Assembly: GCF_030028105.1 (NCBI RefSeq)
Contig: NC_092381.1
Location: 26,205,550-26,269,549, forward strand
Source of the DNA: Mobula birostris
Lineage: Eukaryota
Direction of reading: 5' to 3'
Length of the DNA: 64,000 nt
This document shows, in pieces, positions 14,231 through 58,223 of the stretch. A program made the translations under genes and the position numbers. The notes beneath the pieces were generated by a model. The model was not told where the DNA came from, did not search any database, and was given only the letters and a program-made list of their open reading frames with translations. Every line of letters starts with the position of its first letter. Within the stretch, counting starts at the first letter, position 1.

Positions 14231-15289
14231 TGCCTCTATTCTGGTGCTTAATTTACTTGTTCCGGAGGATTACATTGACTTAACTTGACGTAAAATATGC
14301 ATGTTTCTAGTTGTCCATGCAGCTCATGACTTTTAAACTCACATTTTGCTAATCTTTGTTATACTAATCAGTTTTTGAATGTTAAGTATCTTCACATCAG
14401 CACTACACATGAGTAATTAGTGTGTTAGCAGTGTCAATTGATAGTAAGCTCCTTTTGATCAGGCCTATTTGTTTCTTTCCCCAATGGAGAGAGCAATGTA
14501 TCAAAGATGGTGCTAAATACCTGACTATTTAAAAGGAAGGATATCAAAGCCTCATAAGATTAAACAAATCAGCTCCAGCAACCCGGGTTCATTCTGCTGC
14601 TGTCTGTGAAGTGTCTGTAGGCTCTCCCAGTGATGCGTGTCACTTCTCCGGGTGCTCCGATTTCCTCCCACATTTCAAAGACATACAGGTTAGTAGGTTA
14701 ATTGGTCTTGTGGGTGTAATTGGGTGGTGTGGGCTTGCCGGGCCAGAGGGTCTGGTGCTATGCTGCATCTCTAAAGGAAAAAAATATTAAGTCAGAGTTC
14801 ACAGCTTCCTCAAAAAAAGAACAGATGGGTGTCTTTTATCCTGCACAGTGAAAGCTGAGGTATGAGATAATAAATTTGTAGGGCTATCAAAAGTTTGGTT
14901 GGGTCTACCCGGAGATGATTCCACATGCGGAGTTAATTCAAAATTAGGATTCACGAATAGAAGACAGTCACCCACAAATCCAAAGGTGAATCAGGATAAA
15001 TTCCTTTACTTGGTGGCTAAATGTGGAATTCACTGTAAAGGTCTAATCACTCATTCGTTCCTCAGGGAAAGTCTGAGACAAGAGCCAGGGTGTCACCTGA
15101 TGAGGGTGAGGAAGTTACCAGGCATATGGTCTGGGTAGTAGCAGAAAGCAGGAGAAGCAGCTTCTCATTGGGCTGTGGATGCTGCTTCTACTCAGAGTGG
15201 GAATGGCTTCCAGCTGGCTAGCTGAGTTCAGTGTGTGAGATGAGACAAGGAAGTCTCACAACCTAATTCAGAAGGCTCTCTCCCCACAC

Positions 15290-40790: not shown

Positions 40791-41053
40791 TCCTTCCTAT
40801 GACACCACAGTTGAATGTTTCCTTTCAGGTTTCCTACTATATCATTGTGACAAAAGTCCGAGCACACTCTTCTTCCTCTGCCTAGATTGCAGTAAACAAA
40901 CCATTGGTACCAGGAGATCTCTCAGCGCTTAGTTCCATTAGTTGTTCAATACTAATGCTCGGATGATATTGAATTGCTCCATGTGTGCATTATGAGATGT
41001 TCAGAGTGCTTTATGCCATAAACCCTGATGCAAAATGCTTCATAAACTGCTGT

Positions 41054-42973
41054 ACACACAAAATGTTGGTGGAACGCAGCAGGCCAGACAGCACCCATAG
41101 GAAGAAGCACAGTCGACATTTTGGGCTGAGACCCTTTGTCAAGACTAACTGAAAGAAGAGATAGTAAGAGATTTGAAAGTGGGAGGGGGAGGGGGAGATC
41201 TAAAACGATAGGAAAAGACGGGGGGAGGGACAGAGCTAAAAGCTGGAAAGTTGATTGGCAAAAGGGATACAAGGCTGGAGAAGGGAGAGGATCATGGGAC
41301 GGGAGGCCTAGGGGGAAAGAAAGGGGGAGGAGAGCGTCAGAGGAAGATGGCGAGCAGGCAAGCAGTTATTGTGAGAGGGACAGAGAGAGAAAAAGGAGAG
41401 AGAGAATAAAAGAGGAAAAAATAAAAAATAATAAATAAATAAGGGATGGGGTAAGAACGGGAGGAGGGGCATTAACGGAAGTTAGAGAAGTCAATGTTCA
41501 TGCCATCAGGTTGGAAACTACCCAGACGGAATATAAGGTGTTGTTCCTCCAACGTGAGTGTGGCTTCATCTTTACAGTAGAGGAGGCCATGGATAGACAT
41601 ATCAGAATGGGAATGGGACGTGGATTTAAAATGTGTGGCCACTGGGAGATCCTGCTTTCTCTGGCGGACAGAGCATAGGTGTTCAGCGAAATGATCTCCC
41701 AGTCTGCTTCCGGTCTTACCAATATATAGAAGGCTGCACTGGGAGCACCGGATGTAGTATATCACCCCAGCCGACTCACAGGTGAAGTGTCGCCTCAACT
41801 GGAAGGACTGTATGGGGCCCTGAATGGTGGTGAGGGAGGAAGTGTAAGGGCATGTGTAGCACTTGTTCCACTTACAAGGATAAGTGCTGGGAGGGAGATC
41901 GGTGGGAAGGGATGGGGGGGACGAATGGACAAGGAGGTCGCCTAGGGAGCGATCCCTATGGAAAGCAGAAAGTGGGGGAGGGAAAGATGTGCTTGGTGGT
42001 GGGATCCCATTGGAGGTGGCGGCAGTTACAGAGAATTATATGTTGGACCCAGAGGCTGGTGGGGTGGGAGGTGAGGACAAGGGGAACCCTAGCCCTAGTG
42101 GGGTGGCGGAAGGATGGGGTGAGAGCAGATGTGCGTGAAATGGGAGAGAAGCATTTGAGGGCAGAGTTGATGGTGGAAGAAGGGAAGCCCCTTTCTTTAA
42201 AAAAAGAAGATATCTCCTTCGTCCTGGAATGAAAGGCCTCATCCTGAGAGCAGATGCGGCAGAGATGGACAAATTGCAAGAAGGGGAGACAGGGTGGGAA
42301 GAGGAATTGTCCAGGTAACTGTGAGAGATCGTAGGCTTAAAGTAGACATCAGTAGGTAAGCTGTCTCCAGAGATAGAGTCAGAAAGATCAAGAAAGGGGA
42401 GGGAGGTGTCAGAAATGGATCAGGTAAACTTGAGGACAGGGTGAAAGTTGGAGGCAAAGTTAATGAAGTCAACAAGCTCAGCATGCGTGCAGGAGCAGCA
42501 CCAATGCGGTCGTTGATGTAGTGAAGGAAAAGTGGAAGACGGATACCAGTATAGGCTTGGAACATGGACTGTTCCACAAAGCCAACAAAAAGGCAGATAC
42601 AGTATAGTTGGGACCCATACGGATGCCCATGACTACACCTTTAGTTTGAAGGAAGTGGGAGTAGCTGAAGGAGAAATTACTAAGAGTAAGGACTCATTCC
42701 GCTAGACAGAGGAGAGTGGTGGTAGAGGGGAACTGGTTAGGTCTGGAATCCAAAAAGCGGAGAGCTTTGAGACCTTCTTGCTGGGGGATGGAGGTATATA
42801 GGAACTGGACATCCATGGTGAAAATAAGGCTGTAATTATTTCTCCTTCGTCTCCTCCCACTTCCTCCAAACTAAAGGTGTAGCCATGGGCATCCGTATGG
42901 GTCCCAGTTATGCCTGCCTTTTTGTTAGCTTTGTGGAACAGTCCATGTTCCAAGCCTATACTGGTATTTTGAC
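41054..42973 (-). mobile_element. Penelope-like element (RT + GIY-YIG endonuclease), decayed, with a 5' inverted duplication
   Basis: VIYYIRCSQCSLLYIGKT...HF...E...LGSFQPDGMN (GIY-YIG), YIND (YIDD-like), GVAMGIRMGPSYA (seen in the inverted duplicate). 14-bp TSD TCATAAACTGCTGT at 41040-41053 and 42974-42987. Confidence 0.92.
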
Positions 42974-45082: not shown

Positions 45083-46308
45083 ATCTTCTCCTTCTTGATT
45101 TATTTGTTTTTCTCTGAAGGATTTTGAATTTATTCTAATCTTTGGGCTCTTCACTATCCTTTGCCCCTTACATAATTTCTACCACCTTGTGCCTTACAGT
45201 ACATTATACAAAGAAGCTTAATGTCTCGGTAAATCCTATTCTAACTGCTCCCTTTGGAAACCCATAGAGCTAGCCTTGAAGTCTTTTTTCTCAGTTACAT
45301 GAGAACACATGGATGTTTGTGAAGAAAAAGAATTTCAGGAAGTATATTGTATATATTTCTGTGACATTAAATGTACCTATTAAACCTATGGAACACTATC
45401 TAAAAACATTAAGTTACTGTGATACTCACATTAATGTGAAAACCACTGCTCTTGACTTATCCACCAACTGTAACATATTTCATTAATTTTCTGAAATTTA
45501 GTATTGATTCTAAAATCTCTGATATCTTGTGCTTAACTGCTTTGAATATCTCCACCAATGGCAACCATGCCTTCAGTGGCCTGGCCTCTAAATTCCTGAA
45601 TTACTTTTACCTCTTTATCTTCCACACCGTTTCTAAGTATATAAGTGCAATTTGTTATCGTGACTTGGGTAGGAGTCCAGCCGGGAACAGAGGGATTAAA
45701 CGTCCACTTGATGCACCAGTTGTAATGATGGTATAGGAAGTGAATATCTGTCCAGTTTTGGAGGCATCTGTCCATACTTTGCTCTTGCATGAAAGTTCCC
45801 CTCAATGAATTTTGAGATGGCTATTAGATATAGATATTAGTCACACTGGTGCACTGAGGCAGATGCTGATGAATAGTAACTGGGAGACCGCTTTGCACTT
45901 CAGTTACATGTGTCAGCATTTTACAATCATTTGGTACTTTCACCAGTGAATATAATAATTACGAGTAACCGGATGGTAAGTGGCCAATGTCCTTGACTCC
46001 AACCATTTCCAATTGTAGAGAGGAAGGTGGTATGCAATCTGCCTGAGCTGTCAAGCACATCTCAAAGTGATCATTCAACATAACACCACTGATAGTCAAT
46101 AACTTGTAGGGAAACGATGATGAAAGAGAAGTACTCTTAGGAGATTCCCTTCCTGAAATGTCCTACCATAATCACCTTTGCACAGGCCCTCGGGATCGCC
46201 ACAATGTACAATTCAACCGCTCTTGATTATATTTCTGGTGATGTTTAGACCTTGGTACTCAGTGATGTTGCGAATTGTGCCAAAGTGACTCAAATGAACT
46301 ATCCTCAG

Positions 46309-47731
46309 CACGCATGCTGAGCTCGTTGACTTTATTAACTTTGCCTCCAACTTTCACCCTGCCCTCAAGTTTACCTGGTCCATTTCCGACACTTCCCTCC
46401 CCTTTCTAGATCTTTCTGTCTCTATCTCTGGTGACAGCTTATCCACTGATGTCTACTATAAGCCTACTGACTCTCACAGCTATTTGGACTATTCCTCTTC
46501 TCACCCTGTCTCTTGCAAAAATGCCATCCCCTTCTCGCAATTCCTCCGTCTCCGCCGCATCTGCTCTCAGGATGAGGCTTTTCATTCCAGGATGAGGGAG
46601 ATGTCCTCCTTTTTCAAAGAAAGGGGCTTCCCTTCCTCCACCATCAACTCTGCTCTCAAACACATCTCCCCCATTTCACGCACATCTGCTCTCACTCCAT
46701 CCTCCCGCCACCCCACTAGGAATAGGGTTCCCCTGGTCCTCACCTACCACCCCACCAGCCTCCGGGTCCAACATATTATTCTCCGTAACTTCTGCCACCT
46801 CCAACGGGATCCAACCACTAAGCACATCTTTCCCTCCTCCCCTCTCTGCTTTCCGCAGGGATCGCTCCCTACGCGACTCCCTTGTCCATTCGTCCCCCCC
46901 ATCCCTCCCTACTGATCTCCCTCCTGGCACTTATCCTTGTAAGTGGAACAAGTGCTACACATGCCCTTACACTTCCTCCCTTACCACTATTCAGGGCCAC
47001 AGACAGTCCTTCCAGGTGAGGCGACACTTCACTTGTGAGTCGGCTGGGGTGATATACTGCGTCCGGTGCTCCCGATGTGGCCTTCTATATATTGGCGAGA
47101 CCCGATGCAGACTGGGAGACCGCTTTGCTGAAAGCCTACGCTCTGTCCGCCAGAGAAAGCAGGATCTCCCAGTGGCCACACATTTTAATTCCACGTCCCA
47201 TTCCCATTCTGACATGTCTATCCACGGCCTCCTCTACTGTAAAGATGAAGCCACACTCAGGTTGGAGGAACAGCACCTTATATTCCGTCTGGGTAGCCTC
47301 CAACCTGATGGCATGAACATTGACCTCTCTAACTTCCGCTAATGCCCCACCTCCCCCTCGTACCCCATCCGTTATTTATTTTTATACACACATTCTTTCT
47401 CTCACTCTCCTTTTTCTCCCTCTGTCCCTCTGACTATACCCCTTGCCCATCCTCTGGGTTCCCCCCACTGTCTTTCTCCCCAGACCTCCTGTCCCATGAT
47501 CCTCTCATATCCCCTTTGCCAATCACCTGTCCAGCTCTTGGCTCCATCCCTCCCCCTCCTGTCTTCTCCTATCATTTTGGATCTCCCCCTCCCCCTCCCA
47601 CTTTCAAATCTCTTACTAGCTCTTCCTTCAGTTAGTCCTGACGAAGGGTCTCGGCCTGAAACGTCGACTGCACCTCTTCCTAGAGATGCTGCCTGGCCTG
47701 CTGTGTTCACCAGCAACTTTGATGTGTGTTG
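46309..47731 (+). mobile_element. Young 5'-truncated Penelope-like element (RT C-terminus, GIY-YIG, terminal repeat)
   Basis: LPFLDLSV, VYYKPTDS, IPFSQFLRLRRICS, VIYCVRCSRCGLLYIGET...LQPDGMN; one frameshift near 46840. 10-bp TSD CTATCCTCAG at 46299-46308 and 47732-47741. Confidence 0.95.
47633..47670 (+). ncRNA. Minimal type I hammerhead ribozyme motif in the PLE terminal repeat
   Basis: TAGTC-CTGACGA-AGGGTCTCGGCCT-GAAA-CGTC-GACTG. CUGANGA and GAAA core, helix I UAGUC/GACUG, short helix II, palindromic ACGT helix III, GUC cleavage triplet. Activity untested. Confidence 0.8.
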
Positions 47732-49050
47732 CTATCCTCAGTTTTGTTCAGTTAGGTTAGTTTTTTTCTGAATCGGAGCACAGAAATTCCGATTTGCGCC
47801 ATCACTGGGCAGCTGAACCAGCTGTAATGAATTAGATTCAGTGGGCTCTATGAGAGTTCTGCCTGAAGACCATCGATCCTTAGCTAATGAGGCCTGGACT
47901 CAGAACAAACACTGTGCTGACCAAAGCATTGGAGAGTCAGTGGCGCACTCTGGCAAGCACAATGCCAAGTCAACCAGAGCACCCCTTGGAGCCAGCAACA
48001 GTGAACGCTCTTAACATATGAAAAACTATACATGAAGCATTAAAGGTAGCTGTTTGTCAGATTTACGGGAGACATTTAAGGATTCAGAAAAAAAAAGAGT
48101 CCAAATGTCACAATTCAACATTATAACTCAAGAGAACTCAGCAAAGATGTTCATAAAATTGATGAATATAGAGTCGAACCATTGGGAAAAAAAATGATGG
48201 GATGGGATGATGAACAGAGGAGTGGAAATAACCAGTTTCTACTTTCAGATTACTGGTACATTTGCTATTCAACTAAATGCATCCAGGTAAGGTTGAAAAC
48301 TGAAATAAATGGGCATAATTATTATAAACACTGCAATTATACTAAATTCTTGTTCGCAAATTCAAAACTGGAGACAAAGGTGGTTTCCAGTTGGAAAATT
48401 GGCAACATTTACAAAATTAAATATTATACCTTCACCAATCTTCACACATGCTATTTTTTTTCTGAATTCTGATAAATGGAATGTTGTTTAACATGACAGA
48501 TACCTGTACATCTATATTGTACTGAGTCCTCAATGGTGTTCAGACCACAGAATAATAACTAAGGAGATAGAAATTTGCTGGTAAAACTGTTCACAAAAGT
48601 TTTCCCTTGCATTAGAAAAACAGAAGATCACTCCTTGATTGATGAGTTTATTTAGGCCGGAATTAATGTTAGGATGAGCTCACTTAGGAACTATATGGAG
48701 CACATTCAGTAGCCAATGGCATACATTAGTGCCATTGTGCACAATGGATATAGACATGAGATAAAGATCAGGTGAAGTGGCGTTCCTGGTTTACAGGAGG
48801 TTGTGATGATCCTCTTCGTCCCAGCTGAGTGGCCAACTCAAATTGCGTATTAGAACAATTCAGAGAATAGTTGAGGACTCCTCTCCTCCAACATAGTGTG
48901 GTAGTGCAGAGTAGCATGGAAACAGATCCTTCAATCGAATATGTCCATGCCAACCAAGATTCATTTCAAGCTAGCACCATTTGCCTACATCTGGCTCATA
49001 TACATCTAAAGTTTTCTCTATCCATGACTACATTTTCTTTTAAACATTGT

Positions 49051-50002
49051 ACAGTACTGTGCAAAAGTCTTCGTCAGTCGAGATTTTTTATGTGGTTTCA
49101 GATGGTAATGCCTCCACAGAGCCCTGAAATCAACATCATCGAGGCTGCCTGGGATTACTTGGAGGGAAGAAGCAAGTGAGACAGCCAAAGACTGCTGAAG
49201 AACTGCGTCAAGTTCTCTAAGATGCTTGGAATAACCTACCAACTGATTTTTGTATAAAACCACACAAGAGTGTGGTTTTGAAAGAACTGATCCAGTTTTA
49301 AAAGCAAAGTGTTGTCCCACCAAATATTGATTTGATTTAGTTTTTTACTGTTTAGAGTCATAGAGTCATAGAAAAGTACAGCACAGTAACAGGCCCTTCA
49401 GCCCATCTAGTCCATGCTGAAACATTTAAACTGCCTGCAACACACATCAAAGTTGCTGGTGAACGCAGTAGGCCAGGCAGCACCTCTTCCTAGAGGTGCT
49501 GCCTGGCCTGCTGCGTTCACCAGCAACTTTGATGTGTGTTGCTTGAATTTCCAGCATCTGCAGAATTCCTGTTGTTTGCATTTAAACTGCCTAGTCCCAT
49601 CAAACTTCACCGGGAATACAGTCATCCAAACTTCCAAACTTCTCTTAAACATTGAAATCAAGCCTGACATGCACCACTTGCACTGGGTATCTTGTTCCGC
49701 ACTCTCAGAAACCTCTCAATGAAGAAGCTTTATACTCATGTTCCCCTTAAACTTCTCACCTTTTACCTTTCACCCTTAAACCATGACCTCTAGTTGCAGT
49801 CCCACCCAACCGCAGTGGAAAAAGCCTGCTTACATTTACCCTAACTATACCCCTCATAATTGTGTATACCTCTATCAAATCTCCCCTCAATCTCTTTGTA
49901 ATAATTTTTTTTTTGATTTTAAGGGACTTTTCATTTCATTATGTTGAAAGCATCTTTGCTTTACAGATTTTATTTACGTGGGCCCAAGACTTTTGCACAG
50001 TG
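49051..50002 (+). mobile_element. Non-autonomous Tc1 element interrupted by a CR1 3' end (~49352-49895, minus)
   Basis: TIRs CAGTACTGTGCAAAAGTCTT / AAGACTTTTGCACAGT; PPQSPEINIIEAAWDYL remnant. CR1 tail (TAGAGTCA)n at ~49352. Confidence 0.8.
49437..49578. mobile_element. Penelope-derived fold-back mini-insertion: 51-bp stem, 4-nt loop, 36-nt tail
   Basis: Arms 49437-49487 and 49492-49542 with one mismatch. 14-bp TSD CATTTAAACTGCCT at 49423-49436 and 49579-49592. Confidence 0.95.
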
Positions 50003-50652: not shown

Positions 50653-50817
<165 letters not shown>

Positions 50818-54290: not shown

Positions 54291-56832
54291 TCAGTATTAT
54301 TGAGGAGATGATGATAGAAAATGTGACTTATAACACTGATTGATGTACGGCACTCTTTGGGCATTTTCCTGATATTCATGGTAGAGCACTAACCAATGTT
54401 GCAAGGGGCATAATTATGATAGATTGATATTGCATGTGAAAAACAAGCACTTGCAAATTAAGTCCTACACCAAAATGTTGGAACTCTTAATCTTGAACTA
54501 AAACATTAAACGTATCTTTTTCCTTCAAAAACTTGCTCCTGTCAGTTATGATTCTTCTCGCTCCATTGCAGAAGTGAAAAAATAATAATAAGCACTGTGA
54601 ATGAAAACGACAGTAAAGGAAGAAGCTCCTTGATAAAGCCATTCATCATTGTTGGCATTTAAACAGTGAAGCTCGAGTTAAGCCAGAATTCAGTGGCAGA
54701 TTTCATGGTCAATCAGGCCAAAATCGGTTTAAAATGAATCTGGAGCTTAATATCAGAAAACCAATTACTAATAGCATTTAATTTAATTTCCCTTCAATAA
54801 GCTCTCTTAACCTGGGATTTTGTAGTAAAGACTGCAGCGTCACACACAAAACATGACTTGCAATTTCAGGATCATCACCGTGAGTATATACAGTCTGCGT
54901 TACAAGGAAATGCAGTTGTCAAGAGCTGTAACTACAGAGAGATAAAGCTGATTTTGTAGGATACTGTAAAGCTACGAGCCTACATGTGTTATGCTTCAAA
55001 GCAGGTGTGGGGTGTTAGGAACTGAAAGCGAATGGGAGGATATAAATCTTTCCAAATCTAACTCAGTGAAGGTTTAGATTTACTTTTAATGGCCTATTCT
55101 GGAAGTCAGGCAGACTGACTGGCTCGACCACTCATCAGACGAGGCAAGTTCTTGACAAAGACAAGCTGTAGAGCTGAGAGAGTCTGGGGAGAAAGGGGGG
55201 CATTGTAAAGCTGTGAAGATATAGTTGAGGACTGGTCCATGTTTGGGCAAAGGGTGACAGAGGTAGGGTGATCACAGAGCAGAAGTGTGGGGTTGTGAGG
55301 TGATAGTGCAAAGACACAGAGACACAGTGGGTGGAGATATGGAGGTGGAAGCTATAGGATTTACACCAAATTTAGTTAGACCTGGAGGAAATAGTTCTCT
55401 GTCGAATAATACAACCTTAAAATGAAGGCACACATCTTTCTTAATGACTGCTTAATGCTCAACTACCTTTGGGATTTAAAATTACCCCTCATATTTCAGA
55501 CTCATTTGAAGCTCTTTAAAAGACTTTTACCACCTTGAGTAATGTGGTAACAAGAAACAAAATATAGGAAATCAATCACTAACTATGTCACGCTAATGTG
55601 ATCAAATGCACATCACAGGAGGACAATGCAATTCATTTTAGTTTTATTCCATTTCCACTACAAATGAAATCTTTTTGGCTGACTTCCCTTAATCTCTCCC
55701 TCCAGTTTAAAACTAAGCAATATTTTTTTTCCTGTGCCAGGAAAGGCATATTAGACTGGTTATGTGTGGTGGGATGGAACAAGGGCTGGCTGTTGTGAAA
55801 TTCTTTTAACTTAAGGCCCAAGACTTTGTGTCCAATTTGGCAATCCTGTACAGGGAAGTGGTGAAATGGAGATGGCAAGATGGCATGGAGGTTGGGCTGC
55901 TACCCCTCAGGTCCACAGTCCCAGCTTCGATCCCAGCCATCAGTGTTCCCTGCGCTTTTTCTATGCATTTTCTTTCTCTGATTGTTCAGGCTTCCTCAGG
56001 TGCTCCTGATTCTTCCCACATTCCAAACACGCTGGTGGTGAACTGGAGTCTGTAAACTGTCACTAGGTGGAAATTAATGGCAAAGAGAATCAAGGGGAAG
56101 TTAATATGGACAACTGAGAGAATATGTTGGAGAAAAATGGGGAACTAGGAGGGGGGAATGGGATTATTCTCTGGAAGTTGGCATGGACACATGGACCAAA
56201 TAACTTACATTTACATCCTCATACGTTTGATTTAAGAGTTGTCAATCAGAGGAGGTGAATTTGTGATCCCTCCCTCGAATCTGATCAGAACCTGGAGAAC
56301 AGAGCTCTACAACAGGTGTGTGAGGTTCAAGTTTAGGGTCATAGTCAGGTCCAGTTATGATGTTCGTAGTCCAAGGGATACTCACAGCGAGGTCTGTGCT
56401 TGTTGGCTAAAGGCTAATGGTTTGCAGGTTTCTTTCAAATATACCCAGAACAAGCCTCAGGTTCATCAGCAGGGAGTTTCTGCAAGAGTTGTCCGCACTG
56501 CGGGGGGTATTTATATTTGAGTATAGTATGTGTTGGACATCATTGGATGCCATTTGGATTGTTCATCTAACTCACTGCGCTGGTGCATCAAAAGCACAGT
56601 GAATCTTGAAACAATTCCTCAACAAGTAAGCTTAAACTTTTATCTCATGAAGCATGTAAATGTTGCACCAAATGCTAAATTTATAAACCTAACCCCCTTT
56701 TAAGGGGAGTGAAGGAAATTTCAGGGAGATGTCAGAGGTAGGGACTTTTACTCAGAGAATGCTATGTGCCTGGAACACACTGCTGGTTATGGTGGTGGAG
56801 GCTGATACAGATGCAGTTAATTTAAGAGACTC

Positions 56833-57355
56833 AAGCAACACACATCAAAGTTGCTGGTGAATGCAGCAGGCCAGGCAGTATCTCTAGGAAGAGGTACAGT
56901 CGACTTTTCGGGCCGAGACCCTTCGTCAGGATTAACTGAAGGAAGAGTGAATAAGGGATTTGAAAGTGGGAGGGGGAGGGGGAGATCCACAATGATAGGA
57001 GAAGACAGGAGGGGGAGGGTTGGAGTCAAGAGCTGGACAGGTGATAGGCAAAAGGGGATACGAGAGGATCATGGGACAGGAGGCCTACATGATCCTCTCA
57101 TATCCCTTTTGCCAATCAACTGTCCAGCTCTTGGCTCCATCCCTCCCCTTCCTGTCTTCTCCTATCATTTTGGATCTCCCCCTCCCCCTTTCAAATCTCT
57201 TACTAGCTCTTCTTTCAGTTAGTCCTGACGAAGGGTCTCGGCCCGAAATGTCGACTGTACCTCTTCCTAGAGATGCTGCCTGGCCTGCTGCGTTCATCAG
57301 AAACTGATGTGTGTTGCTTGAATTTCCAGCATCTGCAGATTTCCTCGTGTTTGTG
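56833..57355. mobile_element. Inverted pair of Penelope-like terminal repeats (two hammerhead motifs) inserted into an old CR1 3' end (~56700-57520)
   Basis: Arms 56833-57073 and 57088-57319, 36-nt tail. 15-bp TSD TAATTTAAGAGACTC at 56818-56832 and 57356-57370. Confidence 0.93.
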
Positions 57356-58223
57356 TAATTTAAGAGACTCTTGGATAGGCACATGGATGAAAGAAAAATG
57401 GAGGGTCATGAGACATGTAGGAGGGAAGGGTTAAATTGCTCTTGGAGTAGCTTAAGAGGTTGACACATCATGGGCCAGAGGACCTTTACTGTGCTGCACT
57501 ATTCTCTGTTCTGCATTCTGCATTCCAAAAACGTTCTCCTCAATCCAGACATATGATCTCACTAATCTCATCTCAGTCAGAGAAAAAACAATCTCTCTTA
57601 TATTCTTTGCCACACCCATATACACCCTATTTCCTTCTGCAATGTCCCATAGAAGAAGCTTCTACCCCAAGTAAACCTCTCACTCTTCTATTTTAGCTGC
57701 CACATACCTGCATAGCAACGTGCCTTTCTCTACATTTGTATTAATTAAAACTCCTACTCTCATCCTGAAGCAGCAGAGATTTGGGGAGATGGGGTGGTAT
57801 CATTTCTCCTAGTAAATTTCCCCATAATCACTGCCCTAATTCCAAACAATACAGGTTTACAAGTTTATTACGCATGCCCAGCCAGATCTGGTTGGATCAT
57901 ATAGGGTCCCCTTTGATGTTGGTATAAAATTGTCTGAATATTCACATAAATGATTTCACTGCACCAGTAATCCAGCATAACTGAACAGATAGGAATTGGA
58001 ACTGGGTCATTGGAATTGGTTTATTATTGTCACAGGTACTGATGTACAGTGAAGTGCTTGTCTGGCATACAGATAAAATCATTACACAGTATATTGAGGT
58101 AGTACAAGCTAAAACAAGAACAAAATGTAGAATAAAGTGTAACAGCTACGAGAAAGTGCAGTCCAGGTAATCAAAAAAGTGCAAGAACACAACAATAGCC
58201 AATAGTCTATTTTATCATACTAG

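Follow-up and report, generated by a model that had tools for sequence, protein, structure and literature searches.

Within the 64,000-nt stretch of Mobula birostris DNA that we analyzed (the window), an intron of DPYD contains a 142-base, mirror-image insertion (49437-49578). We consider it probable that a short cDNA was started from each of the two nicked strands of the target and that these cDNAs were joined at an imperfect palindrome downstream of the hammerhead. Counts across the family support the view that this palindrome sets the turn-around point, with the allele link seen through a linked marker. Judged by its sequence, the insert derives from the 3′ end of a Penelope-like element (PLE) of Neptune/Nematis type, and it is a dead, very short PLE insertion, a real but ordinary stub of known layout.

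Structure and identity of the insertion

Positions 49437-49487 pair with 49492-49542 in a stem of 51 positions, the one exception being T49469/G49510, which is a G-U wobble on the forward strand and an A x C mismatch on the reverse strand. The insert folds better than every one of 200 shuffled versions (z = -17.9), and its two arms have three nucleotides, GCA (49480-49482), in common. The stem, the TCCT loop, the 36-nt tail and the 14-bp target-site duplication (TSD) described in the first-pass annotation are all confirmed. The direct repeat is a genuine TSD, because all nine of the nine aligned paralogues of the older host repeat carry the motif once, and in them the sequence continues like the right flank; the empty form of the target is thus seen in paralogous copies of the host repeat.

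Table 1 Features of the insert, the related PLE copy and the neighboring exon, in window positions (. marks a feature given without strand)
Feature	Positions	Strand	Remark
Older interspersed repeat, host of the stub	49352..49700	.	right boundary approximate
Left TSD copy, 14 bp	49423..49436	.	paralogous host repeats hold a single copy
Inverted tail-less arm, PLE 3′ end	49437..49482	-	would be the cDNA primed from one target nick
Sense arm	49480..49542	+	begins 4-7 nt past the predicted hammerhead cut
TCCT loop (AGGA on the cDNA strand)	49488..49491	+	
PLE tail, 36 nt	49543..49578	+	tail type found in passages of PMC3846280, PMC8557442 and PMC11167929
Right TSD copy, 14 bp	49579..49592	.	
Longer PLE copy, frameshifted, tail-less	46298..47733	+	RT-proximal ORF, Cys-rich linker, GIY-YIG, pLTR
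Minimal type-I hammerhead motif (AGTC-CTGACGA...GAAAC-GTC/GACT, slash at the cut)	47634..47669	+	by eye; motif class in passages of PMC4209133
Imperfect palindrome, GCAC allele, in family copy	47670..47689	+	starts 4 nt past the predicted cut
DPYD exon, residues matching DPD 659-686	50734..50817	-	insert in the following intron

An arm of the insert is 97% identical to 47670-47733, the end of the longer PLE copy. The ORF of that copy reads VIYCVRCSRCGLLYIGET, with two internal Cys in the GIY-YIG; the Pfam GIY-YIG match is weak (E = 0.098, below the cut-off), and the RT-proximal ORF is a putative assignment. Judged by host range, the element is probably Neptune rather than Nematis. Upstream of the GIY-YIG lies CKWNKCYTC (C-x4-C-x2-C), which fits the CX2-5CxxC pattern of the linker joining RT to EN that passages of PMC8557442 give as a mark of Neptune/Nematis PLEs. 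Additionally, the insert has an inverted, 5′-truncated copy adjoining its 5′ end along with the one-sided tail and the TSD. This is the arrangement of EN+ PLE insertions in the passages of PMC3846280 and PMC8557442 considered here, where the 5′-truncated pLTR copy lies head-to-head, the one-sided tail measures 30-40 bp and a TSD is present; the same passages report palindromes at the inverted junctions, which recur in the insert's family, and a hammerhead in the pLTR, for which the family has a candidate motif identified by eye. The insert differs from these published examples in being very short, with both arms under 65 nt plus the tail.

The family is large, with 65,208 arms that cross the small palindrome intact and 26,908 and 5,456 exact matches to two tail-junction variants. 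The copy at 47.7 kb, previously put forward as the parent, is one of these more than 65,000 arms and is tail-less; it is better called a relative than the parent. Other members of the family lie in the window. Two long copies at 41053-42490 (reverse strand) and 46307-47728 (forward strand), 85% alike and both tail-less, face outwards and are probably independent insertions rather than one fold-back. A second TSD-flanked fold-back, at 56819-57370, is joined near a CATG palindrome, and its inverted arm reaches about 15 nt further 5′ than its tailed arm.

The turn-around point

The imperfect hairpin that the first-pass annotation placed just 3′ of the hammerhead is present, starting 4 nt after the predicted cut between 47665 and 47666, and the sense arm of the insert holds the same CTCT-TCCT-AGAG palindrome. 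We collected 575 short-centre loci, in which both arms are present and the centre measures 30 nt or less, and inspected the first 50: 27 have a junction of the same length, and 26 of those are in the hairpin register, as read by eye. A junction-pattern search returned 393 matches, 40 of the 50 inspected being true and the rest consisting of eight ordinary arms with a substitution and two other junctions, which gives an estimate of about 310 exact-match in-register loci (393 x 40/50). Crossovers within GCA fall in register in 20 cases versus 4 slipped by 3 nt with an equal 3-nt homology (by eye; two-sided p ~0.0015).

The strength of the palindrome differs between alleles, the cDNA-strand hairpin having a predicted folding energy of -5.6 kcal/mol with GCAC and -1.9 kcal/mol with GTAC. 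The tail type that goes with GTAC only (28 of 28 called) is found in 30 of 127 ordinary copies and in none of 39 in-register copies (p = 2e-4), and all 39 tailed in-register examples have the tail type that includes the stronger-palindrome allele; here the tail marker stands in for the GCAC allele, and the age of the lineages may also play a part. The samples are the first matches on two contigs (C1 and C3), and exact-match patterns favor young copies.

The proposal that inversion points cluster at CTCT-TCCT-AGAG holds locally, in the short-centre set, but not for inverted junctions overall. For an unbiased view we took 166 tailed ends from 160 of 200 listed addresses (two tail-junction variants) and dropped three second views of two-tailed elements and ten ends with a direct-orientation neighbor. 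The resulting 153 insertions include 90 that are inverted; only 3 of these 90 have the exact TCCT-loop junction, and the main cluster of junctions lies about 30 nt 5′ of the cut. A permutation test (7 observed vs 1.24; 0 of 20,000) is not relied on, since the correlation between arm lengths inflates its significance. That correlation in the unbiased inverted insertions (Spearman rho 0.62, n = 90) looks as if both arms shared the same template 5′ extent. A control palindrome, GTCGAC at the cut, yields 52 junction loci, fewer than the hairpin register, though its CpG decays and seven of the matches, on contig C17, may be segmental copies. These seven identical GTCGAC-centred matches lie within 620 kb (G000:C17:31971049-32587974) and are probably a segmental or tandem duplication.

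The internal mismatch of the palindrome is perfected in the insert, which had been read as a signature of the turn-around. The stem-perfecting form occurs at five loci including the insert, and the same base is present in 5 of 203 ordinary arms (Fisher p = 0.75), a background rate; in the genome, the internal mismatch persists in 28 of the 30 copies closest to the insert. The extra G is most likely an ordinary substitution or a template variant. The other perfected form occurs at 20 loci, above the background of 3/165 for that base, and is explained by crossing over inside CTCT.

Joining of the arms and competing origins

In the mechanism that we favor, the endonuclease would nick both target strands about 14 bp apart, one cDNA would start at the end of the tail, and the second would begin some 36 nt inward from there. 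One cDNA, through its 3′ end AGAGG-TGC, would then pair with GCA-TCTCT of the other over 8 bp with one G-T wobble, after which the ends would be trimmed, extended and ligated. The cDNA that supplies the centre would fix the loop orientation, at about 50:50, and one cDNA may briefly fold back in cis before annealing to the other. Antiparallel annealing of two palindrome-crossing cDNAs whose strands stay intact through the centre would account for the two loop forms as well as for the mismatch being kept.

The population of copies fits this mechanism in several respects. Of the 39 typed in-register copies (one of 40 was untyped), 22 have the loop in the tailed arm and 17 have it in the tail-less arm. 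Of the 90 inverted junctions in the unbiased sample, 52 have an inverted arm that extends further 5′ than the tailed arm, 37 show the reverse, and in one the arms are equal. Mini copies and asymmetric copies are alike in how fixed the outer ends of their tail-less arms are (in the asymmetric ones, most fall at -5..+5 of the tail start), as is expected from a second start site of reverse transcription. Arms with different family alleles occur in 5 of 61 insertions; two other markers give 3 of 27 and 7 of 41, and the control palindrome 5 of 50. Discordant arms at the CCC/CCT marker were put down to CpG decay and left out of account. In a few insertions, such as L121 and L134, both arms have a tail. 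As a separate observation, an internal rather than terminal inverted piece, with the geometry of L1-type twin priming, is found in 7 of the 90 (L043, L078, L095 and others).

The first-pass annotation saw in the insert the footprint of PLE integration, which our data support, and ascribed it to snap-back self-priming, which as a full mechanism they do not. Here a single cDNA would fold on its own 8-bp hairpin and copy itself, and the self-copied cDNA would jump across to the opposite end of the target when still 36 nt from its start. Such a course would account for a hotspot in the hairpin register and for the wobble, which can form on the cDNA strand only. At the wobble, 38 of 40 in-register copies retain the base of the loop side, and fold-back in cis readily accounts for such a one-sided bias. 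The two arms agree in 34 of 35 in-register copies, some with private changes in common (L163, L165), although concordance would be given equally by snap-back, by one RNA source or by later gene conversion, and the single discordant copy in 35 does not differ significantly from the 5 of 61 above (p = 0.41). The insert's own loop lies on the tailed arm, as snap-back allows, but this fits either mechanism, and the verdict comes from the population of copies. A folded-back cDNA must put the loop on the first-made arm and cannot add a tail that it never had, so that the 17 copies (of 39) whose loop lies on the tail-less arm contradict it. Nor can it yield the 52 of 90 junctions with the longer inverted arm (allowing for the seven with an internal inverted piece), and it offers no reason for stopping at the same place as the asymmetric copies. 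We thus regard single-cDNA snap-back as unlikely on its own. It may nevertheless act as the joining step between two cDNAs, and sequence alone cannot tell two-cDNA annealing from a brief cis fold-back followed by annealing to a second cDNA.

A second proposal concerns the template, which would be the 3′ product of hammerhead cleavage, the cDNAs running off at the cut and losing their frayed last 4 nt by trimming. The hammerhead core and helix I are visible by eye at 47634-47669; this is not the predicted minimum-energy fold of the monomer, and an Rfam scan of the window returned no hammerhead family match. The short distance between the cut and the start of the sense arm (Table 1) favors the proposal, as do a palindrome register stretching loosely as far as the cut, three of 40 in-register copies that come to 2 nt from it, and four loci that reach it exactly. 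However, these four in-register junctions could also arise by one transition from the neighboring form, and the palindrome alone accounts for the position. Most sampled arms read through the cut, and only 2 of 243 arm ends lie at it (-66), with no local excess (19 ends in -56..-70 vs 19 in -41..-55 and 14 in -71..-84). Furthermore, in the sections of PMC11167929 considered here, hammerhead cleavage is dispensable in vitro and no Anolis reads end at the cut. We consider a cleaved template improbable as the general origin; run-off at the cut followed by trimming is possible for a minority of copies.

The arm ends cluster instead at -93..-105, which holds 60 of the 243 (mode -98/-97) and beyond which their density drops about ninefold. 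This family position, equivalent to window 47627-47639 and scored at loci L031-L060, L076-L135 and L190-L259, is the 5′ edge of the hammerhead, at the 5′ strand of helix I. The spot has what we take to be an initiator-like TCAGTT and a branch-point, pyrimidine and AG motif resembling a 3′ splice site. No shared upstream exon was found at the ends in -89..-105 of 17 solo copies. [quoted passage not shown] The cluster is likely the 5′ end of the RNA.

The hairpins could also form a mobile, non-autonomous family in the manner of a SINE or MITE, amplified from one or few masters. At least 40 copies are 96-100% identical over 138-142 nt, and 33 of 40 have their own TSDs of 13-17 bp. Such identity is expected, since the parent arms are themselves 93-98% alike. 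The copies also have two loop orientations, two parental alleles common to both arms (17 G/G, 17 T/T) and outer ends that vary, and a third marker lies within the loop arm. Together these features indicate many independent origins and not the spread of one master, which makes a mobile hairpin family very improbable, while some secondary copying of hairpin stubs may occur.

A role in the DPYD pre-mRNA, for which the stem would have been kept or perfected as a substrate of Drosha, Dicer or ADAR, was also considered. The neighboring exon is well identified (27 of 27 aligned residues identical to DPD 660-686), and the insert lies 1142 nt into the intron that follows it (exon 50817-50734). The stem is predicted by folding at -108 kcal/mol, with the A x C mismatch in the pre-mRNA strand, and draws weak Rfam matches to miRNA precursors, far under the gathering score (35.6 vs 45.5 bits). 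Any long stem gives such matches, and the fold-back at 56.8-57.3 kb scores more strongly; the miRNA matches were accordingly discounted as a consequence of the stem. With hundreds of similar hairpins across the genome and the stem-perfecting base at its background rate, a selected role would be highly implausible. Incidental editing of a long intronic stem is plausible, and the locus is most likely inert. Elsewhere in the window, 15013-15287 on the forward strand, opposite the DPYD strand, matches Rfam nuclear RNase P over the full model length (93 bits, E = 2.9e-25).

Finally, the hairpin is almost certainly not an assembly artefact: palindromes are liable to mis-assembly and no independent contig spans the locus among the repeat-dominated contigs examined, but the TSD is perfect, the host repeat has paralogues in the empty form, the two arms differ at one position, and the same junction recurs at many unlinked loci, each with its own TSD.

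Relation to known systems and implications

How PLE inverted ends are built is stated to be unresolved in the parts of PMC8557442 and PMC11167929 considered here. Passages of PMC3846280 attribute junction palindromes to self-priming on an antisense template, whereas our counts favor two antisense cDNAs; none of the passages from PMC3846280 or PMC8557442 describes an allele-linked, exactly recurring junction. The two-cDNA reading is in line with the in vitro behavior of Anolis Poseidon PAc, as given in sections of PMC11167929, in which the PLE protein cuts and extends both target strands, starts reverse transcription at two sites bounding the tail, and is a predicted dimer. PAc belongs to another clade than the insert's PLE, and those sections leave the joining steps unvalidated and do not analyze inversion junctions.

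LINE-1 twin priming, as presented in parts of PMC11702581, resembles the two-cDNA reading in that the second target end primes its own reverse transcription, the TSD is kept, and the inverted pieces are joined by microhomology. In L1, the second reverse transcription starts inside the RNA, beside the point where the first ended, which produces a 5′ inversion whose pieces overlap little. In the insert's PLE, by contrast, both would start near the 3′ end, so that the same sequence is duplicated as a palindrome. The insert's family has a putative minimal type-I hammerhead, identified by eye, of the kind described for metazoan PLEs and non-LTR retrozymes in passages of PMC4209133 and bioRxiv 10.64898/2026.07.22.740005, where opposite-strand pairs 100-700 bp apart have already been noted. 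A non-LTR retrozyme, which consists of tandem repeats that each contain a type-I hammerhead, was rejected as the identity of the insert, since the insert is single, is not arrayed in tandem and lacks the hammerhead core.

The new content is modest, as the layout was already known, and consists of an allele-linked junction hotspot with symmetric loop orientation; the value of the insert is as one among some hundreds of repeats of the same integration accident. We propose tentatively, with rather more doubt than confidence, that head-to-head PLE insertions arise by dual target-primed reverse transcription, the cDNAs annealing antiparallel at any self-complementary patch, and that the recurrent junction described here records this process. 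In this dual-priming reading, which we hold just as tentatively, a single base (GCAC vs GTAC) would switch the hotspot, and the heteroduplex would segregate into mirror loops at about 50:50. If true, and taken with the wall of cDNA ends at the 5′ edge of the hammerhead, most insertions would, like strong-stop DNA, stem from cDNAs that ran off the 5′ end of the PLE RNA, and the published idea of antisense self-priming would be replaced. The loop-orientation count and the single-base dependence provide two cheap tests of dual priming versus self-priming in the existing in vitro system. PLE hairpins are also predicted to be a steady supply of new intronic dsRNA stems.
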